Shown one piece after another: positions 15,582 through 64,000 of a stretch of DNA of 64,000 bases. Within the stretch, counting starts at the first letter, position 1, and every line of letters begins with the position of its first letter. The position numbers and the translations under genes were made by a program. Below the pieces are notes generated by a model that was given only the letters and a program-made list of their open reading frames with translations, ran no database searches and was not told the origin of the DNA. Source of the DNA: Lama guanicoe (Eukaryota); the NCBI GenBank assembly GCA_013239625.1, contig MU053557.1, forward strand, positions 3,812,123-3,876,122, given 5' to 3'.

Positions 15582-15639
15582 AAGAATGTTGTTTCAGCAA
15601 TTATATCAATATACTGAATTCTCAATTTACTCTTTCTTC

Positions 15640-28969: not shown

Positions 28970-29027
28970 ATGAAAATATCAGGTGTCTTTCTGCTTCTCT
29001 CTCTGGCTTTTTTCTGCTTTTTCTCAG
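28970..29027 (+). CDS. SPINK6: SPINK6 coding exon 1 (MKISGVFLLLSLAFFCFFS + 1 nt)
   Basis: caccATG Kozak context, signal peptide, GTGAGT donor at 29028. Confidence 0.95.
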
Positions 29028-29819: not shown

Positions 29820-30025
29820 TTAATGCTGAGATCAAGAGAAATGAATTTCAGTCCTGGCATTTCTATTTTATAGCGGTGTGCCGTTTCTGGTCTCATTTTC
29901 CTCATCTGTAAAATGGGGATGTAACAGGAATAGCCCTAAATGAGGAATTAAATGAAAAAGTACATGTAAAATGCTTAGCATAGGGGATGGAACATAGTAA
30001 GTGTTTAACAAATGTCGATTAATAT
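29820..30025 (+). mobile_element. MIR SINE
   Basis: Core tctcattttcctcatctgtaaaatgggg and gaggaattaaatga...catgtaaaatgcttagca. Further MIR-like pieces lie near 1400-1600, 9470-9590, 31600-31790, 35620-35790 and 39560-39800. Confidence 0.8.
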
Positions 30026-31340
30026 TGCCACCACTAAATTTTAATAATGAGAGTACTAGCTGGACTCAGGCACTGGTATTAACCTTGCTTCCACTTTGAC
30101 ATTTCATGCATATGAAACTTTGGACAAAATCTCTCCTCTTCTGAGAGATTCTGAGATTTGTATAGTGGAGAATGGCTGAAAACTGTAACAATGAGTCCTC
30201 CCTAGTCGTAAAAATTGATTGAAGTGGTTCTAAAAAGGTACATTTCCAGACTCTATTTTCTCTTATTTAATGGAACTTTTCAAGGGGCTGTCCTAAGAAT
30301 TTGTATTTTTAATAACGACCCACACCACACTGTTGGAATAAGGTTGGTAGCCACAACAGTAGAAGATCATTCACTTTTTTTTTTGCAAATTTTGCAAAGC
30401 CCCGTTTTCTCCTTATCCACATTAACAGAGAAAGTACCTTGAGGTATTTCCAGCTGTCTTCCCATAAGTGCTAGCCACACTGGAGAAGACTGCATTTATC
30501 CGTGTACTTTCTGTCACTGAGGTGACCTCGGGCTTGCGTGTGAGAGGTACTGCTGGCGTTAGGAGGTCCACAGAAATGGCCAGAGATCAGAAGTCAGCAG
30601 CGTGTATCAGGAATGAACCTAACACTTTTATTATTTCAGTATTTTAAACCACTGTGCTAATAAGCCACAACGTAAAACCACACAGATGATCACAAAGATG
30701 GAAGGAGGGGCAACTGTTATTTATGAACTTATTTCCCTTTCAGGAGTTTAGAGAGATGTAGCAGGAAAAATGACTCACAGGAAAGAAAATGAGTTTGTCC
30801 TTGCCAGTCTAAATTTGCACCAAAGTCTTTAAAGCTGAGTATGAAGGGCAGAAGAACAATTTTGAGCTCAAAGAACAAACAACAAATCCAATCCCTTCCC
30901 TCAACTGCCTGTAACAAAGGCTTTGGGGAGGGACTAAATGCACTGAACTTTGGAACATCAGAGTTAGAGGGAAATTTCCAACACAACTTCTCCAAAAAGA
31001 GGCCAGAGATGATAAAGTAATTCCCACAGTAAATTAGTGATGGGCGAAGACTTAACATGACTCTCCAGAGCCTTAAACGATTTCTCTCAGCCCAACCCAA
31101 CCTCCAATAAATATTAACCCATCACCATCCATGTCCACACAGCACTTTCCAAGTTTCTACCATTCCCTAAGAAGACAGTCGGTGTGAAAAACAAAACAAC
31201 CATACCATGACTTATCGAGATGCCCACAAACCAGGATAAGTATCATCCCAGGCTTTGGTATTTCCTAATTTTGCAAATTCCCCTTTTGGCACCTTCAGAA
31301 ATTAGTGTTTGGATTTTATGCTTTTTTCTTTTTTTTCCAG

Positions 31341-31363
31341 GTATCTTCAGTCAAGGAGTTCAG
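31341..31363 (+). CDS. SPINK6: SPINK6 coding exon 2 (GIFSQGVQ)
   Basis: Long polypyrimidine tract plus cAG, 23 nt exon, GTCAGT donor; matches recalled human GVFSQGGQ. Confidence 0.93.
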
Positions 31364-32059
31364 GTCAGTACGCATTTTTATTTACTCTTAGGACCTGGGT
31401 GGTGCTTGGCTGGTATTTCCTGACCAAAGAGGTTTGTCTACGGGTAAAAGAGCAAAAAAATGAACAAGCAGGCCAGATGCAAAAATCAGGAGATATTTCT
31501 TTGCTTTTTAACTACAGTCTCTCTACGAGAATACTGTTCTCAGTTTAAAAGAGGCGAAACACCCATTCTCAGATTTTGTTAAAGTAAAATGAATACAAAT
31601 AAAAGTAGGTTGACTGTGTGGTCACATTCATGTTCTTTCACTGATTTCACTGTGTGATCTCGGGCAAGTTACTCAGCTTTTCTGAGCTGTAATTCCCACA
31701 ACAATAGAAAAGGAATAATACTATTTACCTCATAGAACTGGATTCAAATCACATAAACTACATGGAAGCATTTGGAAAACTATAAAAAAAATTATTGATT
31801 AATAATTAATAGTTTCTGAAGGAGTTAGGACAGAGGCTATCTTTTTTTTTTTTTAGAAGTAAGACAACCAAGAGTAGACAGAAAACTTGTTCAGTTTGGA
31901 TTTGGACTGAATATATATAAACTGGCTCAATCAAACTTAAATACAATTTGGGTTAAAAATTGGAATGGGTACAAATTATCTTTACTGTTGGCTGATTTTT
32001 TCCAAATCAATCCACCAACTTTATTTTCCAGTTTTCTTGTCCTAGCTATCAAAAGACAA

Positions 32060-32195
32060 CACAAACAGTGGTATTTGCTCTGCCAGACTCGCCCTTGCTT
32101 CCATATTGAACATTAACACCTGACCCTGGCTCTGGTCCTTGTTTGCCCTGATGTGCCCAAGAACCCTTGGCATCAAAATTTTCCAGACACTGCTG
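32060..32195. mobile_element. MER5-like hAT DNA transposon fragment
   Basis: cagtggt...agacactg termini; family assignment from recall. Confidence 0.4.
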
Positions 32196-35100
32196 CCAAC
32201 TAATAAGAGTTGGCAAAGAAGTTGAAAGATATTTTCCAACTCTAATATACCTACTACATTGCTTAAGGCTCTTTCTCCCCCCAGATTTTAGCATCTCAGA
32301 AACTGGGGTGTCTCTGACAATGAATGAAGTCTTACATTAAATACCCGCGTGAGTGTGCGTGTGCACGTGAGCGCATGCAATGCATGCACACGCTTGTGTT
32401 CATACCGGCATATATAATTGTACATCTTAAAATTTATTTCTTCTTATGTTTAAATACATAGGGTAGCCTGGTCTATGTTAAATATCAAAACAAACAAACA
32501 AGAAAAGGACGTAAGATCTGGCCAATATATTTTATACCCCATTAGGTGGTAAAATACGATAGGACCACTACTCACACGTTTTTAAAATACGGAATATAAT
32601 CCTAGTTTTCTCATTAACACAAATTCCCTTCTTTGGGCTTTGATTTCCCAGACTGTTAGTTTCCCAAATTTACAATAATCTGTTTACTGATTCTATTTCT
32701 TTAGATGGGCCTAAGTCTTATATTCTGCTTGCTTTAGGATCTCCTGCAGATGCTTACTAACTAAGTAGATCCTTAGGACCATGCCAGGCTTACTGGGTAA
32801 TAATCACAGTGGGGAGGTTTTAAATCTCCATTCTAAGCATCTAGTGCTGGCTGCACTGACTCTGGAGTGCTCAAATATATTGGCGACAATACAGATGAGT
32901 CCCAACATGAATACTTGCTGCCTGTGTGATTGGAAGAATGTCTCTTTCCCTTCTCATTGCCTTTGTTTCCATATCTCTAAAATAAACAGTTGGATTCAAT
33001 GGTCTCTAAAACCCCTTCTGGCTTTAGGCATCTGAATCAGTATGAACCAAGCATGCCTTGCCAAGACTGTTGTTTCTTTGCCATTCAAATATAAAAGGCA
33101 AAGAGGGTGGCACCTTTCAGAGGACATCAAGGCTACCCTTTCTCTTCCACATGCCAGGAGAGAGTGACAGTACCAATGGCAGGCAGAAGAAGTTGACACT
33201 AACCTTAGGAGCATGTCTGCCCGAGTCTGATCTAGCCAAGACAAACGGAAGGTTTTCTCTAACACTCAAGTCATTCTTTTCATGCCAAGAAGTCTCTTCA
33301 TTATGAAGCATCTGATGAGACATTATAGTTAGCAGTCTCAAGTACAGGGTTGTACAAGTTCCCCATTCTTTCAGAAATATTATTTAAGTGACACAAAAAG
33401 CACATTCCAGGGCTTCTGCAAGTCATGGTCCTATAAAATCCTCCCTGGAAATATAAACGACTAATATGCTACCAACTCTTTAATTTGCCATGTAGGAATA
33501 TTAAATAACATAAAAGTAATAATATAATAATTTAAGAATGAAACTATTAACCATCCCCAGCCTTCATGAAAGAAATTGCAGTGTAATACTAAATGCTTAA
33601 AAGTCATAATCTCAGAATAAGGATAGTCATTTAGCCTGGATAAATTTTGCTTTTACAATCACTTAACACCCTGTCTTTATTTTTCTAATTTCCTTTGTCA
33701 GGCTGTATATTTGAGAACCATATACTTACAGAGATTTTTAAATGAATATTCCAGATTGGAATTAATATAACAGACCTCTCAAAAACAATGATTGGCAACC
33801 ATTTGCTTTTACAGTAATTTGGGGGCTAAGTTTAGTTTTGTTTGTATTTTAAGATAAATATATGGTAAGTTTTAATACAGGTAGTGAAACAATACTCCAT
33901 GATAAGAATATGTTTGAGACTGTTCATTTTTCCTAAATAGCTTGAATTCACTTATAATTTTCAATCTGACAGGCTACCTAAATACAAGTTGGAGATGTTA
34001 ACTAGCTTCTGCAATTTACCTTCAGAGGAAAGCTGAGGGCTTAGAAAGAGGACCTCGCTGACTCAAGTTTACCAACAGCAGTAAAGGCAGCATCTCAGGA
34101 GCTCTGACTCCATAGAGAGCGAGCTTCCAGGGCTCCACGCTACCTCTAACCAGCACCAGTTCACGTCAAAGTGCTTTGAGCCGTGTAATTTTCTAATAAA
34201 TACACAATAGTGTTCACTAGCTTCACGTCTTAAGCAAAGAAGTAATGAAAACAGTAATTCAAAATAAGATAACTTGTTTCCACATGTGGAAGGGACATTG
34301 AACCTTGAAGGAAATGGACACAGAGAGCAGTCCTGACTGCGTGGGATCAGGTCAGACAAGTTGAGGGTGGGTGTAGGTTGTAAATGTGGAACTGGGGAAG
34401 AGGACTTGAGATGAAGAAACAGATGAAAGGTAGCACTTGCAAGGGGATAGAACTGGTGACATTTTAGTCTGAGGGTAGGTTAATAAACCTGAAGATGGGT
34501 GCTGTTATGGAAAAATGGAAAAATTAGAATGTAAAATCAGTATGGAGGGAAAAATAAAGTTATATACTGGGCATAAATGAATATTAAGTAGTATGAACCA
34601 AGCTTTAACTAAAGATAATCTTGCATATTTCTGACAAATAGAAGCTGGAGCTTGAGATTTTGATAAAGACTCAAGAAAAAAATTCTAGGACTCATTCATA
34701 TCACCTGGGACAATATATGTTCTTAGAGAAAATCAAGCATTTAAAATTTTCTTGAAAATGAACATACTGAATACTCAGGAGAAAACTAGAAAAGACAATA
34801 AAAAGGACAGAGAAGAAACAGCTGGAGAGCCAGAGCACTGACATACACACAAATCGGCAAAGAGTTTTGAAAGGTGGGAGTGTTCAAGAGCAGCACATAA
34901 CATAAAGAGATCATGGACATTTCATAAACAGCCAGGGGAAGTATCCTGTGAGGTGTCATTTTTAGAGCAGTTCTGGTAGTGTGGAGGGAATGTGAAGACA
35001 GGGGAAGTAGAAACCAAGTCAGGAAGGGGGGTAAGGAAAACTGACAAAATAAAGAAAGGAACTGATTTAACCACATAAGTAGTATTTTTCAGGAAAGGGA

Positions 35101-37123
35101 AGAAGAAATGAAGTCCTTCATCTTAGGTATGTGTGTGTGTATTTGCAAATTTTCATTGGCTGTATCTGTAGAACTAAGATGCTAAAGTATCAATGATGCT
35201 GACTCCTTAATTGATTTAGTGACCACATAAGCTTACTTTACAGCCAAGTTAAATGGTTTTGTAGTCACCATTAGCAACGATGACTAATTTGAGTACGCAA
35301 AGCGTCACTCTATTCCATTTTAGAAAGCATAGTTCTTTGAAGAACCACAAGGGGGCAGGCTGATACTAAACATTGGCACCCAAATGCCTAGAAGTCGTCT
35401 CTGGAAGCTGGACTATCTAAGGAAATAAAAGGAGGCGCTTGTTAAATCCAACACCAATCTAAAAAACAACAAAAAAACAAAAAAAAAAACCTTAAAAACT
35501 TTTTTTAAGCTAACTAAAATAGGGTAGGAAATAATGGGCGCAAAAATTCTAGTATGTGATATGACTTACATGGTTAGTGTTCGTTATAGCAATCTTCCAA
35601 TGGATACTTGATACTTCACTAAGTGTTTTTGTAACATTTATCATGTCAACAACCCTAGAACATAGGCATTGTCAGCCCCCCATAAAGAAGTCAGGAATGT
35701 AAACTCAGAGCAGTGAGTGTTTGCACAAAGTAATGCAGCCAATAAGCAGGAGAAGCAAAATTCAAACCTAGGCTAGTCTAATGCCATCTACAAGACAATA
35801 CCCTAGAACCACAGAACCCTGGGGCATTTCAACTAGACCTGGGGGCGGGGGCAGGGAGGGAGGGAATATTTCAGCTCTCCTAGATCGCCCAAATGCTTCA
35901 CAGAGGATACTAAGAGAAAAGATAATCCTATCATTACCCTTTGTCTAGACCTGCTTGACTTCCAGTGAGAAGCCAATTGCTTGGATTTCAATTAAGGGAG
36001 TCTAAAATAAAAAGATAAAAAAGGAGAGGAAATATAGGCAGTTGAATGACATTGCATTCAGGAATCAGTCTATCTCTTTCAGGGATGGGAGCTGTGTGGG
36101 CTCTTTTCTAGTCTCAACGCTGATATTCCTCTGCTTCACTCTTTGCTTCACAGAAGGGATTTCTGGCTGGCTTTGCAAAGGCATTCTTCACCTTCCCCAA
36201 CCTCCAGGGCTCTCACAGTGGCCCTTTTCTGTCCTCAGTCACCATGTGAACATTTTTCACACAATGAGTGAAGAGGATCTTTTAAACATAAAGGAGGAAG
36301 CATTTGGGCAACAGATGTTATTTCTCCCACCCAACTAAAGAATTAAAGAACTAAGTTAAGCTGCTCTACTAGAAAAATGCACTGCTAAATCCTGGATCAT
36401 CAAAGCTGATGCATCCTTAGAAACCGCCTAGTCCGGTGGTACTTGGCATTTTTTGAGCCACAGAGCCTTTCAGAATGTGATGAGAGCTACAGCTGGGGCA
36501 GGCCTACAATGAGCAGCTTATTTTCTACACTCCTCATCCAGGACTATTTCAAAAATTGTACACTGACTTTCTACAACTCTCAGGTGGCCACGTTTCATCC
36601 TTATAAAAACCCTGGTGAAAGGCATAGTAATTGTTTTTTGTTTGGTTGTTTTGTTTTAAATTTTTGGTTAAGAAAATTGAGGCACAGATACTGAGTACTT
36701 TGTTGAAGATAACACAACGGGCCAAAGGCAAATGGCAGAACAAATTCTGACGTGATTCCGGAGCTTCCTTCAGGGATCGTGGAAGGCCAGGGCAACTTAA
36801 AAGTATGAAATGCATCTATGTTAGGGAGGTTTGTTCATATGCCATTTGGTTGATTTGGTTTTATTCACTGAAATCCTGTGTTCTTCCTAGTCTCACTCCC
36901 AGGGCAGTGGAAGGGGGAAGTGGGTTTGGGGAGGGAGGTGAGATCTAGAAATTCTCAGAACGAAGACCCTCCCCAAGAGCCACTTCCATATCTGCTTTCT
37001 AAAGGACAAGAGAGGCTGGATCACAAGATCAGAGGGCCGGTGGCCAGGGAAAGGTGGCTTAAGGCGGCATCTCTTTCACGTAAGAGAATTTCTTTTTTCT
37101 TTTCCTTACCCTACCATGGAGAC

Positions 37124-37938
37124 CAGGTCCAGTATTTTTTAATAATCATTAGCTTATTTGCCACGAACATCTTTGCCACAGGTGTTTTTCCGCCCTGACT
37201 AATTAGCCATAAGGCATGTAAAAGATACACTAACTGGCTGATGGTTCCAGTTGACGATCTGGAGTCAGCTGGTAGACAGTTTGCTTTCATTTCTCCATTA
37301 ATGCTTTCATTTCCCCATTTTTGTATTACATAAATCTTAGCCCTCTTAATGGTCTAGACAGTGAGGAGTAGACGTGGTGGTCTTAAAATAGCAGATAACA
37401 ACAATGTATACTTGCTTGATAGAAAATGCAGTGATAAAACTTACTTGACAATATACCAGGGACAAACACAACACAATATAAAGCCGAGTAACAAATGTGC
37501 ATCCTAGTATTTGGGGAAAAAAAATGCCTCTCTTAATGAAGGCAGAAATTTTGGAAAAAAAAGAAAAAAAGAGTGCGATGTCCAACAAGGAGGCATATCA
37601 AGCAAAAAGGTTATAATATTATGAACTAAAGATTTCAAAGGCAAGTGCTTAGGTATAATCCACAAAATAAAACTGGGGATTTGTGCAATATTGCCATAAA
37701 TCTACGCACATTTAAAATGAATTTAAATAGTCTGTATTTTGCAATAAAGTCTTTTTAATTTTGTGATGAGAAATGAATTTCATTATACCCTCTCTAATGT
37801 CCCTCTTTACTTCTAGTGATTTTATCTTATACAGCAAAACTGCCTTATGGTTGGTTAGCTATTGATGAAAATGTGGGGGAAATACTTGTGGCAGAGATGT
37901 TCACAGCAAAGATGTTTACAGCGAAAATACCTAGAACC
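37124..37938. mobile_element. Non-autonomous DNA transposon with long TIRs (Mutator-like, Ricksha_c-like)
   Basis: gaacatctttgccacagg...ccataaggc on the left is inverted as gccttatgg...cttgtggcagagatgttc on the right; ends aaaatacctagaacc; decayed 9 bp TSD catggagac / tgtagagac. Confidence 0.65.
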
Positions 37939-38388
37939 TGTAGAGACGCCCTTCCCCCAGTTTCCACATTGCTTGCGGCTTGTCCCACTGGGGCACTGTG
38001 CCGTAATTACCTGTCCTCTGCCTCCCTGATGCAGGTAAGATAGTGAGCTTACTGATGTAGTGTTTATAACCAATTCCTGTTTCTATCACCAGCACCCGGC
38101 ACTGTTTTCCAAATACTAATTACCTGTTAGCTCTTTGTGAAATAAATGAAAATATCTATGATGACTCTGAGGTTTAAAGAATTTTCTTGACTCAAGCACA
38201 CAGTTATAAAAGTGTACAGCCAGAAACTCTGGCTTTGGGTTTGGGCCCTGGTCCGCTAACCAGAAGGCTGAAGGGCCCTGCCAAGACTTAGAAGAGGTTT
38301 GTAAGGTGGCGTGCCCACAGGGAGCAAGCGATCCTGAAAGCAGAAGGCACCAGATGGCTGGGGCTCTGGTCTGAACTGGGGGATGGGT

Positions 38389-38495
38389 TGGGGGCAGTGG
38401 GGGTTGGGGGCTGGAAGCAGCTAGGAGAGGCTAAGCAAGGCATGGGGGCAGTGGGGGTTGGGGGCTGGAAGCAGCCAGGAGAGGCTGAGCAAGGC
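38389..38495. repeat. G-rich tandem duplication, period 54, two copies
   Basis: tgggggcagtgggggttgggggctggaagcagc(t/c)aggagaggct(a/g)agcaaggc at 38389 and 38443; two mismatches. Confidence 0.9.
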
Positions 38496-40755
38496 TGCTG
38501 CAGGTGGGGGAGGCTGTGCAGGGAGGGCCTGGGCCTGAAGGCAGAGTGCACCGACTGACTGGCTCAGCCTACAGAGGGAGCCGGGTAGGAAAAGGACTGG
38601 AAGCTGGCACAGAGGGAGAGGGTGAGTAGGACCTCGCTGGGTGTGGTGCTGACAACCCAACGGTGAATGTTAACTGTAGAAAGGGCCGGCCCAGGGAGGA
38701 GGCACTTAGGAGGGGATATGGGGGAACGTGAAGGGGGTGCTTTCCTTTCTAGCTGAGAAGATCCCAACGGCAGCCTAGGGTGACCTGCTTGCACCCTATC
38801 CAGCCATGGCAGGGGGAGAGGGTAGGGAGGGCAGAAAGAGCATTCAGGGCCGGTCCCAGCTGTGCCATCAACTCAGTGTACTTGTCCAACCATGCCATGC
38901 GGCAGCCCTACCTGCCTGAGAACACTAAGGAGACAACAAAGCATTTATGCTTAAGGTGGAAAAAAATTAAAGTGTACATTAGTGACAAATACAAAATGCA
39001 TTAGCTTTTGAAAAAAAATCCTATAGTTTATAATGCCCGAAAGATTCTCCAGCTTTTTTTTTTTTTGAGACCTAAACTAAAGATGACTCCCCTGTAAGTA
39101 GTACGGGAGGATGTGTTATCCTTACGAGCAGTGGAGAAAGGGGCTGTAGGTAAGATTACAAGGAGCCTAGGTATCTTCTACTTGACTAAGCCCTAAGAAA
39201 ATCTCTGGTACTCTCTCAATAGTAGAAGACACCAAATTTCAACCAAATATATCAAAAGGTAAATTTAAGATTCTCAGATGCCTTAAATCTGATATATGTG
39301 ATAATATTTTTAAACTCAATCCTATGACTCTTTTGCTGTGCATTTCCTCGTGCAAACCTGGAAAGGGCTTTGTCAGTTCACATGGTTTGTTAATACCATA
39401 AACAAGCGACTCCTCTCACCTGTGCCCATACAGTCCCCCAATAAGGAATTTTAATAAAGCCTACATGGCACGACTGTAAGTGTGGTCAAGGGTATAGAGT
39501 GACGGTTGGTCTTAATTTCTCTCAACGAGGATGTGCTGGAAATCAACCAGAGCACATTGTTCGGAAACTCAGGGTCAGCAATAAGGAGTAGGTTCAAGTA
39601 CTGGTCTCAATGCTTCTGGTTGTGCGGCATTGGTGAGCCACGTAATTTTCCTGAGGATCAGCATTCACGTCTGTAAATTGGTTAATATAATATTGTTCAG
39701 TGTGCATCTCAGGGTTATTATGAGACTCAGCCGAGTTAATCCATATGAGAGGAGTTTGGATATTATGTAGCAACTGATAAACGTAAGATGGTATTATTTT
39801 AACGGAGCTTGGATGGGGTAAAGTGTGGTCCCTCTACTCATGTTTAAATGTCACTTCATTCCACACAGCTGCCATCTGAAGGACGCCAGTTCTACCTGTT
39901 GCCTGTACCCTGGAATAAGATGGCTCAAATGTCATTTGCACACCAAATATTGACTCAATTGACACTGGATTGAAAGGAATCTTAAAAGTCCAGACTATTT
40001 CTGAGAGACCACTATAACTGAGGGGACATGTTAGTAGCGCAGGCACTATCATTCCTGCAAAGCCCACGATGAGAATTATTAATTGGTCACAGCATGTGTT
40101 CTCACCGAGGTTGGACGCAATCTCAGAATCCTTCAAAATAAAGCAACTTAGGCAACCATTACTCAGTTATCACAGTGGCTACAGAAGTTCAAATTCCACA
40201 AACAAACTCTGGGACAGATTAAGTTAACACAAAGACATTAGAATTTTGTTTTCAAGAGACAGTGAAGGAACGCAGCAAGTCAAACTAACAAGCTATCAGA
40301 TAACATCTGGAAGCTCCTTGCAGTGATTATCCATATCTTTAAAGCAATGCAGAGGAGTGCTATGGGGTTACATTAATACAGTTTTTTAAAAAAAGCCATT
40401 TAAAGACCAAAACTACTCTCAATTGGAACAATTTTAGTGTTGAAGCAAAAAGTCATACCTATAGCTTTTGCTTTTCTCCGTACTTAAGAAGCATCTGCCT
40501 TACATCATTAACTTACTGCTCAATACAGTAACTGTAGCAATGTGTTTCCTACTTCTTAAAGAAAAAGCCTTAAATATGTTTAATATATTCTAGTTAGGCA
40601 GATAAGGAAAGTGAGTTTCTATTTCAGGGAACTTTACATCACAGCTATATACAACACTGTATATAAGTTTAAGTTTGCTGCCCAAGCTTCCATCTGAGGG
40701 ACAGTCCCGTAGACGGAATGCATTAACGTCAATGTCACTGTGCTTACTTCGTTAG

Positions 40756-40871
40756 GTTGACTGTGGTGAGTTCCAGGATCCCAAGGTTTACTGCACTCGA
40801 GAATCTAATCCCCACTGTGGTTCTGACGGCCAGACATATGGCAATAAATGTGCCTTCTGTAAGGCGGTGGT
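40756..40871 (+). CDS. SPINK6: SPINK6 coding exon 3 ([38 protein letters not shown])
   Basis: ttAG acceptor, GTAAGT donor at 40872; Kazal Cys I-V with P1 Arg. Confidence 0.97.
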
Positions 40872-42334
40872 GTAAGTATCACACTCACCAAACCTCCCTC
40901 GCAAACACAAACTTCTAGAATAAGACTATGATACTTTCCTTGAGATATTCTAGAAAGTTCTGCACATACCCACCAATAGAAACTGAAGAAGTTAGCTTCA
41001 GGCAAATAGGTTAAAAACAAATGGGTCAAAAACAAACTTAAAGAATTATATAATAAATTACCTGAAAACAATTTTAGTTATTTTACTTTGTTATTATTCA
41101 ATTTGACTCGGGGAAATTTTTACAGATCTTTAAGAATTTTAATACAGTGTCTTATTTTTTCATTTATCTCTGATTAAAATTTCAGTAATTTTCATCCAGT
41201 GATGTTTGTTGTTGCTGTTAATAATTTTGTAAAAGATGAAATAAATTCTTAGAGGTGTAGTCAAGTTTGAAAATTCATCAAAATCAGAAACATGGAAAAC
41301 TTGCGTAAAATATTTTTACCGATGATAAATTTTCTCACAAGTTATTTTCAGACATTTTATTTTATAACAACTTATATGTTGCTAAGGCATCATTCTCTTT
41401 TAGTCTGATAAAAAGAGCCTTTCAATAAAGAATAGAGGAGATTATCCCTTATTATTCAGACTATTCAAACTTTACAGATAGTAGGTATATTAGGAAGATT
41501 CTATCAAGGGCCAATATTTATTGAATTTGCATGTTCATAAGAAACAACAGGTACTATAGATTTTAGCTAACTGTGAGATTCCTGATGAATTGCAACTTAT
41601 TATTAATAAAAATTTATTTAATCAATCACTCTTTTGGTCTGATTGCTCTAAAAGCAGGGAGATTAAACCCAGATAAAAAGTACCTCACTTCCAATACCAT
41701 TCTCATCATTTTCTTGTATTAGAGTTTCTTCCATGAGTGCCTTAATTTCCCTCAAGTTAACCATAAAATTTCTAAGCAAAAGGACTATATAACTCCCTGT
41801 CAATAATAACAGGACTAAGCAGATAGAATGATATTAATAAATATTGAGTCAATACATAATACATACATGCCTACATTTATACATAACATGACTGACACAT
41901 CAACACCAAAATTTTCCCAAGGGCAGTAGGGTCAGGGAGGCTTGATTTAGTATCTGCTATAAAATTCCAAATGCTCAAATATAGTTCAACCTCCATCAGT
42001 TAAGAACTGTGACATTATAGCCTCTTTGCCATTATTTCTCCTGTTACTTTCTACCTTTTCCAGTTGTGCACATTTTTACTTTCAGATAATGAACAGTTAA
42101 AACCAAAAGGTCTAAACCTTAGTAAAACTCTGAAATTTGTTTAAGATTCATGCTTTCTGCAGTTAGGCCAGATGTTACTCTGAGTGTGTTTAATTAACAC
42201 CTGCCAAATCACAGACACAGATGTGTGTAAATCAAATGATTGCATGGACTGCGACAGAGTTAAACCTTCTTCCAACCTCTGTAATGAATACGAATGATAC
42301 TGCACTGAGCATCATTTGCGCTTCTTTTTTATAG

Positions 42335-42380
42335 GAAAAGCGGTGGGAAGATCAACCTAAAGCACCCTGGAAAATGCTGA
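42335..42380 (+). CDS. SPINK6: SPINK6 coding exon 4 (VKSGGKINLKHPGKC-stop)
   Basis: tttatAG acceptor, phase 2, TGA at 42378-42380; spliced CDS is 243 nt, 80 aa. Confidence 0.96.
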
Positions 42381-49385: not shown

Positions 49386-50369
49386 GTGTAAGAAAAGGAT
49401 GTAAAGGCATCTGCTGAGGAAAAGAAACAGTAGTGGGAGAAGGTAACCACACAATTCTCAGGTCAGAGCCACAATGACAGTTACCTGAGTTATTTTAGTT
49501 TTCATATGAGTAATCTGACAATAAACTCTATCCTCAAGTTCCCATTACACAGAAAACTATTGCTCACCCAATAAAATCTCACTCATTCTGTAGTAGTAAT
49601 CTTTTTAGATGTGCAATGCTTTGAAAACTGTTTTATAAGCTAAAGCAGACATCATTAAATACTTTCTGAGTATTTTAAAAGGCGTTGAGTCCCTCCTACA
49701 GGTGTCATAACTATAGGTTAATTTCTGGGACTTACTGAAAACCTTCATACTCTTTTACGTAGGTGAAACCAGCAGAAATCTCATGAACACATCACCATGT
49801 ACCATTTCATTTTGACCGTTCTCAGGACACTAAGCTTTTTGTTCCTGAAATCCTAGAATCGGGAAAGAGATTTGCTTCCACTTGCTAATAAGCTCTTTAT
49901 ATGCCTGGTTTGAAGGAAACTGTTGCACCGTGGTGCCTAGGTGAGAAGTACAGTACTGCAGAAACACACTGAGAGGGAAGCCCTGTCTGATGGAAATGTG
50001 TAGGCTAGCTGACTAAGCAAAACAAAAAGATGGCAAAAGGGAAGAATCATTCTTCTCCATGAATTTCCTTCTTTGCTCCTCCAGCTCAAAGGTCATCCCT
50101 TCAGCAGGGGACTGGGCAACCTTCCTCCTTGCCAGCAACCCTCTCCTTGCCAGCAACCACTCTGTGCGCTTGGTACACCTGTACTGTCAACAGTCTGTCA
50201 GTTTCCTCCAGGAGGCAGAGCCCTTGGAGGACTTGGATTTGGAGCTCGACAGATGTCTTTTGTGTGAGTCCTACTACCAATTATGGGTTAAACGATAATT
50301 TGCTAAGCCTCAACAGTGTCACCTACACAATAAGAATAAGTTCACAGCAAAATTGAGTGAGAAATAGAC

Positions 50370-53385: not shown

Positions 53386-54922
53386 GCCTTAGCATAGCTT
53401 ATAAAACCTGTTATCTTAAGGCCTGCGTTTGAGTCTAACCATTACTCTCATTTCTAAACATATACTTTACTTATTATTTGTTTTCTTTTTTCCATATTAT
53501 TCTTTATTCTTGAAATACTGGTCATCACTTATATGTCTCCAACTTTCTAATAACTCTGAGGGCCAAGTCCTCTGTGAAGCCTGGTTATGACAACCTCTGC
53601 CACTTCTCCAACTTACTCAAGTGAAAGTGCTCTCTTCAGTGTGACCCCACTTATTTCTGTATAACTTTAATCAGATAGCTTTATTCTCCTTTAGCCTGTG
53701 AACTTCTCTTACTCATCTTTAAATTCCCGGAATCTAATAAATTTCCTGGAATCAGTAGGTTGCACCCAGCAAGTGTTTGAGAAAAGAATGAAGAAGGTAA
53801 GCTCTATGAATCTATCTTTGTTGTCATTACATTTTCAGTATTTAGTAATACTTGGAATAACTGGTGCTAGATTATTACTTTTGAAGGAAGGAAGGAATTT
53901 TTATTGGTTAGCATTTATAAAATCAGAATGATATCTACGTGCGTCTGTGTTCACACAAAACACTGAAAAAGAAAGACCCAAGCTTATATCCTAGGGTGTG
54001 TGTGCATTTGCATGTTAAGATTATGTGCAAATATGCATACATATTTATTTCATAGTGGGAAAATGTAGAAGAAAATAAGTAGCAAAGATAATTTAAATGT
54101 TTAAAAGCATTGTGAAAGCAATAAAGCACATTGATCTGAGTTGGGATGGAGGTATTTTTGGTAATATTCAAATGGATATGTCTGAAAAAGAAACTACTCA
54201 TTCAAGTTTCTTGGCTGGGAGTGTTCCAGGCAGAGGGAGCAGTAAGAGCACAATCTCTAAGGTGAAGAGTACATGGTGTGTTTGAGAAAGAGAAAGATGG
54301 GAAGCATGGGTGGCATTTATGCCCAAAGACTAAAACCCATCTGTGAAATCCTTGTTAAAATAAAAATGTTAAATAGGAACCATCATGTATGTGTTGTCTA
54401 AAAGCAAAGGGCTGAAGAAAACAGCCCACTAAGTCACATTCACCTGGAATATCAAGGGTATTTACCTTAATGACCATTAGCAGTATGCCCTCTAATAGTT
54501 AGTCTAATAAATCCCTTGACTTCAAAATCCCTCATATTAGCATTTTTATTTTCCTACTAGTCGTGATACCAAATATTATTCATTTTGTGCACAAATTGTA
54601 CAGACAGTCCTACAGGTTACTGCCTGATGGAAGCTTTCTAGCCCAAAGGTTCTGCTAGGAGGACATTCAAAATCTGCAAATTGTTAGAAAGTGACTTGAT
54701 TGCAATTATTACTGAATGCTAATCAGAGAAAATTTAGAATGAAATTAATTATATGCAGCATCATTTTTGACCCATGTTCCTAGGTGTTTGAAAAAGGTCT
54801 AAAATAAGCTTGCTTGGTTTCTGGTGTTTCTCATCGCTGGTAAAATAGACTACACAATCAGGATACAGAACGTGATGGCTGGCAGATGTATACGTACTTA
54901 GCTGCATGCATATAGATTTATT

Positions 54923-54930
54923 TATAAATA
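54923..54930 (+). promoter_or_regulatory. Orphaned TATA box (TATAAATA) of the SPINK12-like gene
   Basis: Overlaps the left TSD of the L1; removing the insertion places it about 76 nt upstream of ATG 59722. Confidence 0.6.
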
Positions 54931-54939
54931 CAGCCTGTA

Positions 54940-55220
54940 AGAGGTTGAGAAGGATTGGTATGAGTTCTTCTTTGTATATTTGGTAAAATTCCCCAGTGAA
55001 GCCATCTGGTCCTGGACTTTTGTGTGTAGAGAGAATTTTATTGCTGATTCTATGTCATTTCTAGTGATCAGTCTGTTCAAGTGGTCTGTTTCTTCTTGAT
55101 TCAGTCTTGGTGGACTGTATGTTTCCAGAAACTTGTCCATTTCTTCTAGGTTGTCTAATTTGTTTCCATATAGTTGTTCATAGTATTCTCTTATGGTTTT
55201 TTGGTATTTCTGTGGTATTG
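54940..55220 (-). mobile_element. Inverted 5' segment of the outer L1
   Basis: Minus ORF 54922..55281 contains [26 protein letters not shown], the ORF2 part just upstream of the sense segment. Confidence 0.93.
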
Positions 55221-58200
55221 ACTGAAAAGGAGGGAGTACTCCCAAACTCATTCTATGAAGCCACCATAATCCTGACACCAAAACTAGACAAACACACTAC
55301 CAAAAAAGAAAATTACAGACCAATATCACTAATGAACATAGATGCAAAAATCCTCAACAAAATATTAGCAAACAGAATCCAACAACACATAAAAAAGATC
55401 ACACACCATGATAAAGTTGGATTTATGCCAGGAACACAAGGATGATTCAACATACACAAAATCAGTGTGATATACCACATCAACAAAAGAAAGAACAAAA
55501 ATCACATGATCATCTCATTAGATGCAGAAAAAGCATTTGATAAAATTCAACACCCATTTATGATAAAAACTCTAACCAAAGTGGGTACAGAGAGAACATA
55601 TATATAATAAAAGCTATTTATGACAAATACACAGCCAGCATAATACTCAATGGTGAAAACCTGAAAGCCCTCCCACTAAAATCTGGAACAAGACAAAAAT
55701 GCCTACTCTCACCTCTTCTATTCAACATAGTCTTGGAAGTCTGAGCCATAGCAATCAGGCAACAAAAAAAATAAAAAGGGATCCAAATTGGAAGAGAAAA
55801 GGTAAAATTGTCACTATATGCAGATGACATGATACTTCATATAGAAAATCCCAAAAGCTCCACACAGAAACTGTTAGACCTGATAAAAGAATTCAGCAAG
55901 GTAGCAGGATACAAGATTAGCACACAGAAATTAGTGGCATTTCTTTACACTAAAAATGAAATAGCAAAAAAGGAAAGGAAAGCAATCCCTTTTAAAATCA
56001 CATCCAAAACAATAAAATACTTAGTAATAAATCTGACCAAGGAAGTAAAAGACATACATGAACAACTACAAAACACTGATTAAAAAAATTAAAGATGACT
56101 TAAAGAAATGGAAAGATATCCCATGCCCTTGGATTGGAAGAATCAACATTGTTAAAATGGCCATAGTGCCCAAGGCAATCTACAGATTTAATGTGATCCT
56201 ATCAAATTACCCAGGACATTTTTCACAGAACTAGAAAAAATAATTCTAAAATTTATATGAAATCACTAAAGACCCAGAATTGCCAAAGCAATACTGAAGA
56301 AAAAGAACAAAGCTGGAGGAATAACCCTCCCAGATTTCACACAATGCTACAGATCTACAGTAATCAAAACAGCATGGTATTGCTCCTGGATTGGAAGAAT
56401 CAATATTGTTAAAATGGTCACACTGCCCAAGGCAATCTATGGATTTAATGCAATCCCTATCAAATTACCCAGAACATATTTCACAGAACTAGAACAAATC
56501 ATAATAAAATTTATATGGACTCACAAAGGACTTAGAATTGCCAAAGCATTACTGAAGAAAAAGAAAGAGGCTGGAGGAATAACTCTCTCAGACTTCAGAA
56601 AATACTATAGAGCTACAGTAATCAAAACAGCATGATATTGGTACAAAAACAGACATATGAACCAATGGAACAGAACAGAGGATCCAGAAATGAACCCACA
56701 AACTTTTGGTCAACTAATCTTCGACAAAGGAGGCAAGAACATACAATGGAATAAAGACAGTCTCTTCAGCAAATGGTGCTGGGAAAAGTGGACAGCAGCA
56801 TGTAAATCAGTGAAGCTAGAACACTCCTTACACCATACACAAAAATTAATTCAGAATGGATCAAAGACTTAAACATAAGACAAGATATAATAAACCTCCT
56901 AGAAGAAACAAAGGCAAAACATTATCTCACATGCAACTCAGAAACGTTCTCCTAGGGCAGTTTACCCAAGCAATAGAAATAAAAGCAAGAATAAATAAAC
57001 GGGACCTAATTAAATTTACAAGCTTTTGCACAGCAAAGGAAACCATAAGCAAAACAAAACAACAACCTATGGAATGGGAGAAAATTTTTGCAAGTACTGT
57101 GACTCACAAAGGCTTGATCTCCAGAATATATAAGCAGCTCATACGACTTAATAAGAAAAAAGCAAACAACCCCATCCAAAAATGGGCAGAAGACCTAAAC
57201 AAGCAATTCTCCAAGGAAGAAATATAAATGATCAATAGGCATGAGAAAAATTGCTCAATATCACTAATTATCAGAGAAATGCAAATCAAAACTACAATGA
57301 GGCATCATCTCATACCAGTCAGAATGGCCATCATTCAGAAGTCCACAAATGATAAATGTTGGAGAGGGTGTGGAGAAAAGGGAACCCTCCTACACTGCTG
57401 GTGGGAATGCAGTTTGGTGCAGCCACTGTGGAAAACAGTATGGAGATTCCTCAAAAAACTAAAAATAGACTTACCATATGATCCAGCAATCGTACTCCTG
57501 GGCTTATATCCAGAGAGAACTCTAATTTGAAAAGATACATGCACCTCAATGTTCATAGTAGCATTATTTACAATAGCCAAGACATGGAAACAGCCTAAAT
57601 GTCCATCAACAGATGACTGGATAAAGAAGAGGTGGTATATTTATACAAAGGAATACTATTAAGCCTTAAAAAAGACAACATAAAGCCATTTGGAGCAACA
57701 CAGATGTCCCCGGAGAATGTCATTCTAAGTGAAGTAAGCCAGAAAAAGAAAGAAAAATACCATATGAGATCACTCATATGTGGAATATAAAAAAAAAAGA
57801 AGAAGAAGAAAGAAAAAGACAAATGAACATAAATACAAAACAGAAATAGACTCATAGACATAGAATACAAATTTGTGGTTGTCAGGGGGAGGGGGGTCGG
57901 AAGGCACAAGCTGGGAGTTCAAAATTTGTAGATACTGACAGGCATATGTAGAATAGGTAAACAAGATTATACTGTATAGCACAGGGAAATATATACAAGA
58001 TCTTGTGGCAGCTCACAGTGGAAAAGAATGTGACAATGAATATACGTATTTTCATGTATAACTGAAAAATCGTGCTCTACACTGGAAATTGACACAACAT
58101 TGTAAACTGACTATAATTCAATAAAATAAAAAAAACAGCATGGTACTGGCATAACAACAGACATGTACCAATTGAACAGAATAGAGAACCCAGAAATAAA

Positions 58201-59649
58201 CCCACACACCTATGGTCAATTAATCTTCAAAAATGGAAGGAAGAATATACAATGGAATAAAGACAGTCTCTTCAGCAAGTGGTGTTGGGAAAACTGCACA
58301 GCCCCATGTAAATCAATGAAGTAAGAACACTCCCTCACACCATACACAAAAATAAACTTAAAATAGCTTAAACACCTAAATATAAGACGAGACACAATAA
58401 ACCTCCTAGGAGTAAACATAGGCAAAACATTCTCTGACATAAATCTCAGCAATGTTCTCCTAGGGCATTCTACCCAGGTAATAGAAATAAAAGCAAAAAT
58501 AAACAAATGGGACCTAATTAAACGTATAACCTTTTGCACAGCAAAGGAAACCACAAGCAAAACAAAATGACAACCTATGGAATGGGAGAAAATATTTGCA
58601 AGTAATGTGACTGACAAAGGTTTAACTTCCAGAACGTATAAACAGTTCATACAACTCAGTAACAAAAAAACAAACAATACAATCCAAAAATAGGTAGAGG
58701 ATCTAAACATGAAATTCTCCAATGAAGACATACAAATGGCCGATAGGCCCATGAAAAAATGCTCAAAATCACTAATTATCAGAGAAATGCAAATCAAAAC
58801 TACAATGAGGTATCACCTCACACCAGTCAGAATGCTCATCATTCAGAAATCCACAAGGGATAAATGTTGGAGAGGCTTTGGAGAAAAGGGAACCCTCCTG
58901 CATTGTTGGCAGGAATGTAGTTTGGTGGAGCCGTTATGGAAAATAGTATGGAAATTCCTCAAAAGACTAAAAATAGACTTACCATATGATCCAGCAATCG
59001 TACTCCTGGGCGTATATCCAGAGGGAACTCTAATTTGAAAAGATACATGCACCTCAATGTTCATAGCAGCACTATTTACAATAGCCAAGACATGGAAACA
59101 ACCTAAATGTCCATTGACAGACGGCTGTATAAGAAGGTGTGATATATTTATACAATGGAATACTACTCAGCCATAAAAAAGAATAAAACAATGCCATTTG
59201 CAGCAACATGGATGATCCTGGAGATAGTCAACTACGTGAAGTAAGCCAGAAAGAGAAAGAAAAATATAATATGTTATCATTCATATGTGGAATCTTAAAA
59301 TAAAAAGGACACTACTGAAGTCATATACAAAACAGAAACAGATTCGGAGACAAAGTAAACAATCTTATGATTACTAGAGGAAAGAGAGTGGGAAGGGATA
59401 AATTTGGGAGTTTGAGATTTGCAAATGTTAGCCACTATATAAATAGTAGATAAAAACAAAGTAAATTTATTCTGTATAGCACAGGGAACTATATTCAATA
59501 TCTTATAATAACCTTTAATGAAAAAGAATATGAAAACAAATATCTCTATATATATGCACGACTGGGATATTGTGCTGTACACCAGAAACTGACACTTTGT
59601 AACTGACTGTACAATCTAAAAAATAAATTAATAAAAATAAAGATAAATG
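55221..59649 (+). mobile_element. Outer L1, sense segment (RT domain to 3' tail), disrupted
   Basis: [28 protein letters not shown] and SLYADDM motifs with stops; TSD aat(a/c)cagcctgta at 54927-54939 and 59650-59662. Confidence 0.95.
56383..58131 (+). mobile_element. Younger 5'-truncated L1 nested in the outer L1
   Basis: Has its own 3' UTR and A tail; 17 bp TSD aaaacagcatggta(t/c)tg at 56366-56382 and 58132-58148. Confidence 0.93.
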
Positions 59650-59721
59650 AATCCAGCCTGTAGAACATACACAGTGAACTCTATTACACATTTCCTACAG
59701 CCCTGGCAAATCTCGTTGACC

Positions 59722-59782
59722 ATGAAGTCATCAGGCATCTTTCTGCTTTTGATCAGTGTGGCCTATTTGTTCATCTTTGCTG
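59722..59782 (+). CDS. Exon 1 of a third Kazal inhibitor gene, SPINK12-like (MKSSGIFLLLISVAYLFIFA + 1 nt); possibly a pseudogene
   Basis: gaccATG Kozak context; signal peptide paralogous to SPINK6 exon 1 (MKxSGxFLLL); same phase-1 donor position (GTGAAT); resemblance to rodent Spink12 and its position after Spink6 are from recall. Confidence 0.75.
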
Positions 59783-59857
59783 GTGAATTATATATATATA
59801 CACTAACTGGAATTCTGGACCAGACTGTCAATGTCAGCTGTCATGTGATGCTATTGT

Positions 59858-59905
59858 TGATGAAGATGATGGTAACGATGATGATGATGATGATGATGAT
59901 GATAA
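59858..59905. repeat. (GAT)n imperfect microsatellite
   Basis: Directly visible trinucleotide run. Confidence 0.85.
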
Positions 59906-60889
59906 TAATAAGGATGGTTAATGATGGTGACTGCCCATCACACTATTAATTTAGAGGAAATGTTTACTTACAAAATTAGCAACTTTAATTGTCACTATAA
60001 TACTATTCAAGAGATAGGTTTACCCAATGGCAAAAACATCTCATAGGATGAGATGGCCTGTTCTAGGTCAAATGGGCCCCAAATATGTAATCTAGGAGTT
60101 CCAGGCCACTTGTGTTGCCCTCAGCAAACCACAATTAAGAGCATAAAGTTACAAATAAACTTCATTCTTCAAGTAAACAATTCATATTGAAATTAGAAAT
60201 TCTCATTTAAAGTCACCTTCAAGAAATTCTTATCTAAAGAGTTTCAACCGCCAGAATGTTCCTGAGATGTTTCCATTTTACTGAAAGCCAAGTCATTCTT
60301 ACTTACCCTCTACATGAGCAAAGTAAAAGTTTTAGCACACTTTTTCATTATTTGAGAGAACTAATGATGTCAATGCCATTGCCACAAAAGAATTTCTCTT
60401 TAATTGCAGCCTTTTTGCAGCAACTATGAGTTTGGATGGAGGGATTATTTGAAACTGGTTACTTTGAATTGAATCCTGAAAGCTGAAAAGCATTTGAGTA
60501 GAGGCAAATTTAGGGAAAGGGTGTACTGAGGGGAGAGAACAAACAAAAAAATGACAAAATACCAAAAAAAAAAATCCTGAAATGGAAACAAGGTTGGAAT
60601 GATGAAGGGTGTGAGAAGCCAATTCATACAGAGCCTTGGGAGCCAAATTAAAGCATTGGGGTTCCTTACACAGATGTGCTAATACGGCTTTACTAGGGTT
60701 ACCTTCATGAAAACAATGACACTGTACTTGAGTTTCCTCATCAAATATTTAGGGTATTACCAAAATATTATTTTAAGTATCAAATGAGAACATGTACTTA
60801 GTGCCTCAAAAAATGGTAGCTATTATATTTATCACAGGATCTGAGTCAATGTGGAAAAGTAATCACTGTCTTCTCAACAATATTATAAC

Positions 60890-61345
60890 AACTTACCTAT
60901 TGCTGCGTGACTGATCACCCTCAACTTACTGGCTTAAAACAAAAACAGTCATTTATTTGCCTACAATTCTGCAATTCGTGCAGGCTCAGCAGAAATGGTC
61001 TGCCTCTGCTCCCTGATCCCAAGAGAGCCACTCAGCTAAATTAACAATAGCCCAAGTCAACTTAGTCACATTTCTGACGTTTCAGTGGAAGTTGCTACAA
61101 AGGATTCTCCTTTTCTCTCTTTCTGTCTGTTTCTGTCCATAGTCTCTCAGTCCATCCTGCCAGGATCTTAAGGCTTAGACCTAAAAAGGACACACTGTCA
61201 CATCCACTGCATTCTCATTGTCAAAGAAAGCCATCTGCCCAGCTCAGATTCAAAGAGAGGGTAAATGAACTCTTCTGTAGGAGAGGACTAACTTGCATAA
61301 ATAGGGATGTGAGGATTTGTTGGTGGCGAACTTCATAAACATTCT
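60890..61345 (-). mobile_element. MLT1-like solo LTR
   Basis: ttacctattgctgcgtgac...cttactggcttaaaacaa start; cccagctcagattcaaagagaggg. Confidence 0.7.
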
Positions 61346-61458
61346 GAAAACATGCTCCTTACTTTAAAATGTTAATTATAAGACCGTTTATAGGTGGACA
61401 TTATATGGAGGGTGACTAGAAGTAAGGTTTAAGAAACGAGTAACAGAAAATCTGGACC

Positions 61459-61692
61459 TGGGAAGGGATAGACTGGGATTTCAAAATTGTAGAATAGATA
61501 AACAAGATTACACTGTATAGCACAGGGAAATATACACAAAATGTTATGATAAATCACAGGAAAAAAAATGTGACAATGAGTGTGTATATGTCCATGAATG
61601 ACTGAAAAATTGTGCTGAACACTGGAATTTGACACAACATTGTAAAATGATTATAAATCAATAAAAAATGTTAAAAAAAAAAAAAAAAGAAA
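61459..61692 (+). mobile_element. Young L1 3' UTR-only insertion
   Basis: 3' UTR similar to 15063-15581, long A tail; perfect 14 bp TSD agaaaatctggacc at 61445-61458 and 61693-61706. Confidence 0.93.
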
Positions 61693-62011
61693 AGAAAATC
61701 TGGACCCAAATGGCTAAAGGTAATCAACCTGATGATCAACATGGGACCACATTATATAACATGTTTACTCTTAAGTATGGAGAGAAGGTTTTTAAAAAGC
61801 CATTGTAATTACTTATCCTGGTGATGAGGAAGTTAATTTGGGGGTGAGAAAGAGACTATTTCAGATTCTAGCCCTAGAATTTGTACTCCTGCATATCAAA
61901 AGATTTCTACATAGTGAAAGTCTCAGGAGTAAGTCAATAAATACCTGTTATAACAAAGTTAGTTCATGACTATTATCATTAGGGACTATTTTATATTTTT
62001 TTGTTCTCTAG

Positions 62012-62050
62012 ACACATTAAGTGTCTTCAACTAAAGTGAAGGTGGCAGAG
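62012..62050 (+). pseudogene. Candidate disrupted exon 2 of the SPINK12-like gene (D-T-L-S-V-F-N-stop-S-E-G-G-R)
   Basis: Strong polypyrimidine tract plus tAG 2.2 kb after exon 1 (SPINK6 intron 1 is 2.3 kb); SEGG resembles the SQGG mini-exon motif; in-frame TAA at 62032-62034. Confidence 0.35.
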
Positions 62051-64000
62051 GTCATGTTTCTAATCTCAAATGTTCACATGAGCATACTAACAACAGTTAA
62101 CAGCAATGGAACATTTTAGTGTGTGTGTCTTACATATGCATCAACTCAATAAATAATGATGAAACTGAGTATGTCTGAGTTTCAGTTTGCATGAAGCCAT
62201 TGTGTGCTGAATAAAGAAATCGATACCCAAAGCAGAGAAGAAGACATTCAAGATTCTATCTCAAGTATCAGTCACCCTCTAGGACTAAGTGTTCTGAAAC
62301 TAATGCCTCCACAGGGGTGAAGACTAGGTTAAAAGATCAAACAGAGAAATGGCAAAAGGCCTTAAGTTAGGTAGTGATTACTTAAGGACTTGACATTTGG
62401 TCTCTTTCTTAATATTGTAAAGTATTTAATGAGACTTGGTAACCAATTGGCAAGGCTCCCTCTGACAATTTTGGCAATGTGACACAGAATTTAAGACACA
62501 CTATGTCTTCCATGTAATATGAATTATATTTCAAAGACCAGACCAAATATTCAATTTGTCTGCTGGATTCAGTTCAACCTACTTGCTATGTAGGTTGCTA
62601 TGTGGGTGATGCCTTCTATTTTTTGTGCTTAAACTTTATACACCTCCTGGGGTTCAGAGAACAAAACTTGACATGTTTCCCCGCTGAGAGAGAATTAGCA
62701 GGAAACAGTGTTTAAAATATTTAGAAGAAAGCAAACAGAGAGTTCAAAGTCCCTTTCCCTGTAGCTGCATGACAAATGGCTTGTTGAGATTAAATCAGGT
62801 AACTGGACACAATGCTGTAAGACAGCCCACAGCCAGAAACCAGGATCACTAAAGTGCAGACTTAGCAGAATTTGACTCCTTCAGTTGGGAATTACTATCA
62901 TGATTTTAGAAATAAGAAAGAAACACAGGAATATGGAGAAACTGAGTTTAACTTGCATAAGATCATAGAGCTAAAAAAGAGGAGAGACCAGCACCTCAGG
63001 TCATCTGACTTCACTGCTATTGAAGTCAAAATTGTTACTATTTCCATAGAAATGTGATGACTGCTGAAAGAAGAGCCTTGATGGAGAATCTCACTCTGAA
63101 ATATGCTAGACATCCTCTCCCCTTCTCTAACAAGTGGCTGTGGTGAGCATTTTCTGAGCCTGCGCCAAGATAGAATTTTGACCTTACTCTCAAGTGTAAA
63201 GGAAGACAGTAATGCAAGACAATTCTAAAGACGGGAGAATTCCCACCACAAAGGAGAAATTAACCACCCCATTTCAGAAAATTGGAGGACTAAAAACAAT
63301 TATTCAAAAAGCCCTTTGGAATGGTTCAGAGAAGAGGTCCATAGAGCGCACTGTCTTACTCATCACAACCAACAGTACCTTCAGCCAATCCACCCAGGCA
63401 GTCTCTATACCTTCACCACATCGACTGTCTTCTGACTGCGCTATCCTCGCATACAAGGCACTCATCATGTGTGTTATTTATATGTGCTATTTTAAAGTAT
63501 AATAGCACGGAAGTTAGATAAAAAGGGTTGGTGGGACAGCTGAGGGCCCTAAGTACATAAGAAGCAATTGTTGAGGCAAACTGCAGATGCAGCTACTGTG
63601 GTCCATTTGTTGCTGTTTGAGAATTGACTGCATTGAGTTCTATACGTGAGTGTGTGGATGTGAAAATAACTTGTATCAAATCTGCCCATTTTGAGCAATA
63701 TATATGGTAGCACAAATCTAACAAAATATGATTGAAGAATCTTGATGTATTTTCTTGCATTTTCACTGCTCATTCTTTCAACTTGTCTGTATTCTAAAAC
63801 TCATCACAATAGAATTTTGGTAAAAATTGTCTGATCTTTAAAAAGACAAAAAATTCACATATTATATGGAGTATATTATATATGTGTGTGTGCATAAAAT
63901 CCAAGGCATTTAGGTTCAATTAGCCTCTTCTGACATTCATACAAATTCCAATCAGGACAGAGAAAAATTATGTTTTGGGGAAAAGTTGCCTTCTTACTGT

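Follow-up and report, generated by a model that had tools for sequence, protein, structure and literature searches.

We analysed a stretch of 64,000 nucleotides of Lama guanicoe DNA (GenBank assembly GCA_013239625.1, contig MU053557.1, positions 3,812,123 to 3,876,122 of the forward strand; hereafter the window, numbered from its first letter), which is part of the camelid SPINK cluster. The third SPINK gene of this window, with its ATG at 59722 after SPINK14 and SPINK6, is probably SPINK12 and is very probably a pseudogene, judging from the state of its reading frame. A 4.7 kb L1 retrotransposon (54940-59646) lies between exon 1 of this gene and its likely ancestral TATA box, and its putative Kazal exon is cut after seven codons. 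The reading we favour, with a probability of about 0.55, is that this dead SPINK12 would be a unitary pseudogene that carries several lesions, among them the displaced promoter and a likely separate deletion in the Kazal exon, and that the L1 would have been a neutral passenger rather than the cause of the loss.

A twin-primed L1 between a TATA word and exon 1

The element is bounded by a target-site duplication with a 13 bp core, 12/13 identical (54927-54939 and 59650-59662); in 2000 random searches of 40 x 40 nt, a match of at least 12/13 arose by chance in 0.2%. Over a longer span of 16 bp, the two copies agree at 14/16 positions (left copy 54924-54939, right copy 59647-59662, both read on the plus strand), and both mismatches fall in the part derived from the TATA word. 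A previous sequence-only reading of this stretch had described a composite L1 flanked by a 13 bp duplication whose left copy overlaps the TATA word. All of its coordinates were correct, and the composite resolves into an outer L1 (L1-A) and a nested L1 (L1-B) with a 17 bp duplication of its own.

Comparison with human ORF2p (PDB 8uw3 and 8sxt) revealed that the first 280 bp of L1-A encode, on the minus strand, residues 403-459 and 465-499, forming an inverted 5' segment (54940-55220). The sense part (55221-56382, plus strand), which is frameshifted and contains stop codons, begins at about residue 500 (499-500), and the inverted arm is contiguous with it in L1 coordinates. Two arms that are adjacent in one L1 RNA are the signature of twin priming. 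In addition, the codon aligned to Gln497 is supplied by the duplication itself, which is the microhomology expected of this mechanism according to the accessible text of PMC2912911; the same text puts 5'-inverted copies at ~31% of the L1 insertions specific to human and chimpanzee and describes microhomology at their 5' junctions. Beyond the nested element, the 3' part of L1-A (58149-59646, plus strand) comprises the end of ORF2, the 3' untranslated region (UTR), AATAAA words at 59622, 59630 and 59636, and an A-rich tail adjoining the right duplication. The nick site was TT/ATAA for a 16 bp duplication or TA/AATA for one of 13 bp, in either case a loose version of TT/AAAA. The twin-priming geometry links both junctions to one event and thus makes the reconstruction of the empty site reliable; together with the duplication, it supports the conclusion that a single L1 retrotransposition event split this site.

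L1-B (56383-58131, plus strand) is a younger, 5'-truncated copy with its own A-rich tail, and lies between the two copies of a 17 bp duplication (left 56366-56382; right 58132-58148, 16/17 identical; both plus strand). Its nick, TC/AAAA, is a near-consensus endonuclease site. The nesting makes L1-A the older of the two. Over 1000 aligned ORF2 positions, private differences amounted to 3.8% in L1-B, 5.1% in a third copy and 9.7% in L1-A, the last value, taken against the two other copies, being partly a subfamily difference. For the time scale, camels and South American camelids split 11-25 million years ago according to the accessible text of PMC13751797. In L1 coordinates, the 5' end of L1-B lies 258 bp upstream of the point at which this copy inserted, an arrangement that mimics tandem duplication. 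Tandem duplication was rejected as the origin of the internal repeats of 258 bp and 1.5 kb, given copies only 80-86% alike and an inner unit with its own tail and duplication.

In the present sequence, TATAAATA (54923-54930, plus strand) is 4.8 kb away from exon 1; removing the insertion in silico brings its start to 76 nt above the ATG, the same spacing that the previous reading had given. This word matches TATAWAWR at 8/8 positions and is the only one to do so in the ~460 nt examined upstream on the empty site. Pyrimidine-purine steps, a feature of low specificity, occur 25, 27 and 30 nt downstream of it. On these grounds, we consider it likely that TATAAATA was the real core promoter. No alignment to the empty site and no matching spacing were found for the SPINK6 and SPINK14 promoters. 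The word also forms half of a 12-bp perfect palindrome (54919-54930), and hence TATA-like and endonuclease-like sites occur here on both strands. A 10-mer overlapping the palindrome presumably fits a MEF2-type consensus.

Transcripts from the old TATA box would start inside the inverted L1 arm, facing 4.4 kb of sense L1, and the element contains 23 AATAAA words. Exon 1 would thereby have lost its core and proximal promoter, keeping weak TATA-like words. One such word is GATAAATG (59642-59649, plus strand), which matches 7/8 positions 80 nt above the ATG, and whose GATAAA had been put forward as a possible substitute promoter. Its position was given correctly; its rescue value found no support, since words of this quality occur 66-92 nt upstream of 17% of positions and end three of the four other L1 tails checked, and the coding sequence is independently broken (see below), so that rescue would yield no inhibitor. 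The two changes in the right duplication erase letters derived from the TATA word and, at 59647, give rise to an upstream ATG in frame with the gene. This new ATG, 25 codons above that of the gene, opens a frame of 100 codons (59647-59949) that runs through exon 1 into intron 1 and has no Pfam match.

Exon 1 and the apparent remnant of a Kazal exon

Exon 1 (59722-59782, plus strand) is a 20-codon signal-peptide-like frame with a phase-1 donor, as expected of a SPINK gene, and is a paralogue of SPINK6 exon 1 (alignment score 53, compared with at most 38 among 200 shuffles). The donor, GTGAAT, carries A at +5, whereas exon 1 of both SPINK6 and SPINK14 ends in GTGAGT; this A is possibly further decay. 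Two simple repeats follow in intron 1: a TA repeat at ~59788 whose length varies among sequencing runs, and a (TGA)n repeat of ~15 copies (59858-59903).

The identity of the gene was examined with mouse Spink12 quantitative PCR primers published with PMC4447420 and PMC6377611. Over its first 14 bases, one forward primer (PMC4447420) agrees exactly with 60417-60430. No other site in the window fits these bases with one mismatch or none (0.04 expected), and the local score here is the highest of the window. An exact 14-mer of this primer is expected 2.9e-4 times in the 4.2 kb after exon 1, or ~1.1e-3 times over four primers; the match was first spotted by eye and then tested, which the latter figure allows for. 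A mouse forward primer may also fit 59675-59694 (47/300 shuffles) or 60243 (43/1000), neither being significant. MARCOL, considered as another identity, was set aside given the Spink12 primer match. The primer match and the position of the gene, Spink12 being in our assumption the gene after SPINK6 in mouse, make the SPINK12-like identity proposed in the sequence-only reading probable. The literature differs on the human counterpart: no SPINK12 orthologue is listed in PMC12186831, SPINK12 is listed among human SPINK-like paralogues in PMC13639018, and mouse Spink12 is treated as a putative orthologue of SPINK9 in PMC10291479.

Searches for related proteins were largely blank. A word-based search with exon 1 against proteins of 41-132 amino acids found none with three words in common, a search of representative proteins gave no match, and the top score in the ESM Atlas (0.79) was uninformative. 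No SPINK12 appeared among the 120 listed of the 220 hits of a profile search, which did return annotated camelid SPINK6 and SPINK14. The presence of these camelid proteins together with the absence of any exon-1 match weakly suggests that close intact orthologues are unannotated. Loci from two metagenome scans (0 and 3) were rejected as host-derived orthologues; they were GC-rich microbial signal peptides without similarity in the flanks.

The primer match falls in what we interpret as the remnant of a Kazal exon (60410-60430, plus strand), which encodes P-F-C-S-N-Y-E behind a TTGCAG acceptor. The match begins seven bases behind this acceptor, and the cysteine occupies codon 3, its position in SPINK6 and SPINK14 too. 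After 60430 the likeness ends: the next 10 primer bases mismatch, the following sequence (60431-60472, plus strand) is unlike the rest of the mouse primer and brings no second cysteine, and the frame closes at codon 21 with a TGA (60470-60472) that precedes the first GT-purine donor (60498). Sequencing depth past 60430 was 17.1, 12.9 and 16.9 in three DNA runs, a single-copy level, and the sequence there is thus no young repeat insertion. The 60430/60431 boundary is likely a deletion junction, deletion being the simplest reading.

No other part of a Kazal domain was recovered. The Kazal-exon reverse primer (supplement rows of PMC6377611) reached a score of 19 in 59783-64000, whereas its shuffles averaged 20.7. 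Among 80 open plus-strand pieces of at least 20 amino acids, all 59 that contain a cysteine were scanned with Pfam; none had a Kazal domain, and the SPINK14 control was positive. A local hidden Markov model (HMM) built from 90 retrieved Kazal domains, with controls at 88.5 and 9.4 bits, detected no domain in the downstream sequence or in the interval from SPINK6 to the L1, whichever strand was read (best score 1.6 bits; -5.9 bits on the downstream plus strand), and no six-cysteine Kazal domain occurs after exon 1 up to 64000. Between exon 1 and the remnant, no SPINK-like exon with both AG and GT was found; a possible decayed exon 2 (60083-60104, plus strand) shows weak likeness to SPINK6 exon 2, is followed by GC rather than GT, and is not significant (72/1000 shuffles as high). 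Further candidates for exon 2 at 62012 and 62765 have good acceptors and were rejected for in-frame stops, no significant SPINK6 likeness and a position 3' of the exon-3 remnant. At 61841, nine residues resemble the optional SPINK6 exon, a likeness that was not significant at the DNA level and was likewise rejected. Downstream of the broken exon lies a short piece of an L1 3' end that retains a poly(A) tail (61459-61691); it is 85% like a copy at 15360-15586.

Both lesions were recovered from sequencing runs. A search with 59640-59830 (16 sampled words) returned 12 runs under one species label: six runs from two studies that contained the sequence, none of them recorded as RNA, and six RNA-labelled additions. 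Three of the former and one of the latter were aligned to 59450-61400. One DNA run (X1) is possibly the source of the window itself, and the others (X4 and X5) are other samples from the second study. Each DNA run gave a single unbranched contig of 320-322 nt (59583-59864) spanning the L1 tail, the duplication and exon 1; such contigs drop rare variants, so the filled allele is present and an empty allele may still exist. The same truncated Kazal exon sequence was found over 60410-60500 in all three. About 1/100 of one RNA-like run (X7, tissue unknown) was read and held no exon-1 read, which says nothing on expression.

The order of the lesions

The sequence shows a twin-primed L1 insertion with a 13-16 bp duplication that holds the TATA word in its left copy, a second L1 nested in the first, and a Kazal frame cut after seven codons, likely by a separate deletion. 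In the order that we propose, the L1 would have landed in a gene that was already dispensable. We favour this passenger reading because the locus carries several lesions and because no close intact orthologue surfaced in a collection that holds SPINK6 and SPINK14 of many mammals, the latter a weak point. The promoter disruption claimed from the sequence alone held in one respect, as one L1 event did split the site, and failed in another: a Kazal exon that stops after seven codons does not fit a lesion in an otherwise working gene. Overall, the L1 was probably not the first lesion, and we judge its role as a passenger about twice as likely as that of a founding lesion.

Several points weigh against our interpretation. 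Both the empty site and the deletion are reconstructions from the window alone. Among all positions in the window, 4.0% are preceded by a TATAWAWR word at a distance of 60-110 nt, and 37 of the 995 endonuclease-like sites in the window overlap such a word, so that the TATA overlap alone is only modestly above chance. Exon 1 is fully intact, with its ATG, hydrophobic core and GT, and had no substitution in any of the three DNA runs. The SPINK12 call depends on a single match of 14 nt together with the position of the gene; the other three of the four mouse primers had no significant match in the window, and the blank protein search was weak, being word-based with 15 longer candidates unscored. 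The acceptor of the Kazal remnant has a pyrimidine fraction of 0.55, compared with 0.70-0.90 in five real acceptors of the window, and this could be read as doubt about the remnant itself; the window also ends 3.6 kb past the break, so that the missing part of the Kazal exon could be located further downstream. Finally, the age of L1-A implied by its private differences and those of L1-B leaves room for the L1 as first lesion.

This last possibility is the most serious rival, and a somewhat unlikely one in our estimation: in the stem lineage of the camelids, the L1 would have separated a working SPINK12 from its TATA box, and silencing would have been followed by exon deletion and splice decay. 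The insertion exactly on the sole upstream 8/8 TATA word would be consistent with this scenario, as would an outer L1 old enough to carry a second L1 with 3.8% private differences. Sense L1 sequence lowers read-through and causes premature polyadenylation (accessible text of PMC3192792), and AATAAA words abound in the element; yet, according to the same text, inhibition of transcription by 5'-truncated L1s was much weaker in some studies. With several lesions present or likely, being the first would be a minority outcome for any one of them, and TATA words overlap 37 of the 995 endonuclease-like sites in any case. The lack of a close intact orthologue among proteins points, weakly, the same way, and a human genome without an orthologue, as in PMC12186831, would fit an easily lost gene.

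A less probable alternative is that the TATA word merely reflects the AT-rich target of the L1, which would then be intronic or intergenic, with the true start elsewhere, for example at a first exon spliced to the acceptor-like TTTCCTACAG at 59699. Such an explanation draws on the frequency of TATA words given above, on the pyrimidine fraction of TTTCCTACAG (0.70), and on upstream regions of SPINK6 and SPINK14 that neither align nor share the spacing. However, the word fits the consensus perfectly and is followed by pyrimidine-purine starts at suitable positions, acceptor-like sites at least equally rich in pyrimidines occur in 10% of 60-nt stretches, and SPINK6 itself has a 0.70 acceptor-like site above its own ATG. 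The possible mouse primer site at 59675-59694 would lie upstream of the acceptor, although this non-significant match fits 60243 equally.

Least probable is a gene that still works, driven by GATAAATG or by TATA-like words in the L1 3' UTR (59436-59445 and 59547-59556) with its Kazal exon beyond the window: the invariant exon 1 and the 7/8 word at -80 would allow it, but the exon that matches mouse Spink12 is truncated with a stop at codon 21 before the donor at 60498, no camelid protein with exon 1 was found although the neighbours are annotated, and transcripts begun higher in the L1 UTR would run into upstream ATGs as well as three AATAAA words.

Neighbouring features and known systems

Six-frame motif scans detected two Kazal exons in the window, both confirmed by Pfam, and the exons of annotated camelid SPINK6 and SPINK14 map to it at ~96-100%. 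SPINK6 (28970-42380, plus strand) is intact and served as a positive control; its optional exon of 75 nt (37005-37079), which gives a 105-amino-acid form, is also intact and is widely retained in mammalian SPINK6 records. SPINK14 (1181-6083, plus strand) has residues of the South American camelid type, its diagnostic positions agreeing with alpaca records and not with three Camelus records.

Other features of the window include an older L1 (46700-48650), whose first ~570 bp appear to run opposite to the remainder, possibly another 5' inversion, and whose sense part is ~66-70% like the L1s studied here. A GC-richer, coding-like stretch with an 18-bp tandem repeat (50013-50300) resembles a decayed retrocopy on the minus strand (Ser/Lys-rich, then charged) and had no Pfam match in the two plus-strand frames scanned. 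A tRNA-like short interspersed element with an A-rich tail (8877-8960) resembles what we take to be a camelid family of such elements. Rfam gave no match across 42000-64000.

Transposon-associated unitary pseudogenes are a known class, all components of this locus are of known kinds, and the mechanism is textbook whether the L1 was passenger or cause. We found no report of SPINK12 loss in camelids or of this insertion in the literature searched, most subscription papers lying outside that search; the locus would thus add an apparently unreported loss, with a well-preserved, twin-primed and nested L1 at the core promoter. Should the element prove a passenger, it is a caution that a striking promoter insertion need not be causal. 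If instead it was the first lesion, this would be a clean natural case of a retrotransposon that ended a gene by separating exon 1 from its TATA box. The promoter of a protease inhibitor of the skin, hair cycle and reproductive tract would have been knocked out in a single step, fixed and datable, and the gene would later have decayed. The wider impact is small, because the mechanism is textbook and SPINK12 is little studied, with no human orthologue according to one paper (PMC12186831).

Mouse Spink12 is described as a Kazal-type inhibitor of skin, uterus and epididymis in the accessible parts of the literature (PMC4447420, PMC6377611, PMC3585347, PMC4669787, PMC11580939, PMC13194551). The camelid gene shares with it the signal-peptide exon 1 and the 14/14 primer match at the start of the Kazal exon. 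We take their position in the cluster, after SPINK6, to be shared as well. The camelid gene differs in its Kazal exon cut after seven codons, in the lack of any intact exon 2 found here, and in a likely promoter displaced by 4.7 kb. With respect to transcription, it resembles the sense-L1 interference described in the accessible text of PMC3192792 in having a sense L1 with many poly(A) signals downstream of a promoter; here, the L1 is not intronic but separates the TATA word from exon 1, lacks a promoter in a 5' UTR, and is known from its sequence alone. Another parallel is with the twin-primed L1s of Ostertag and Kazazian (2001), as presented in the accessible text of PMC2912911. The camelid element shares with them the 13-16 bp duplication, the contiguous inverted 5' arm, the microhomology at the 5' junction and the A-rich 3' tail, with no mechanistic difference; it stands apart as an old, camelid copy that hosts a second, nested L1.

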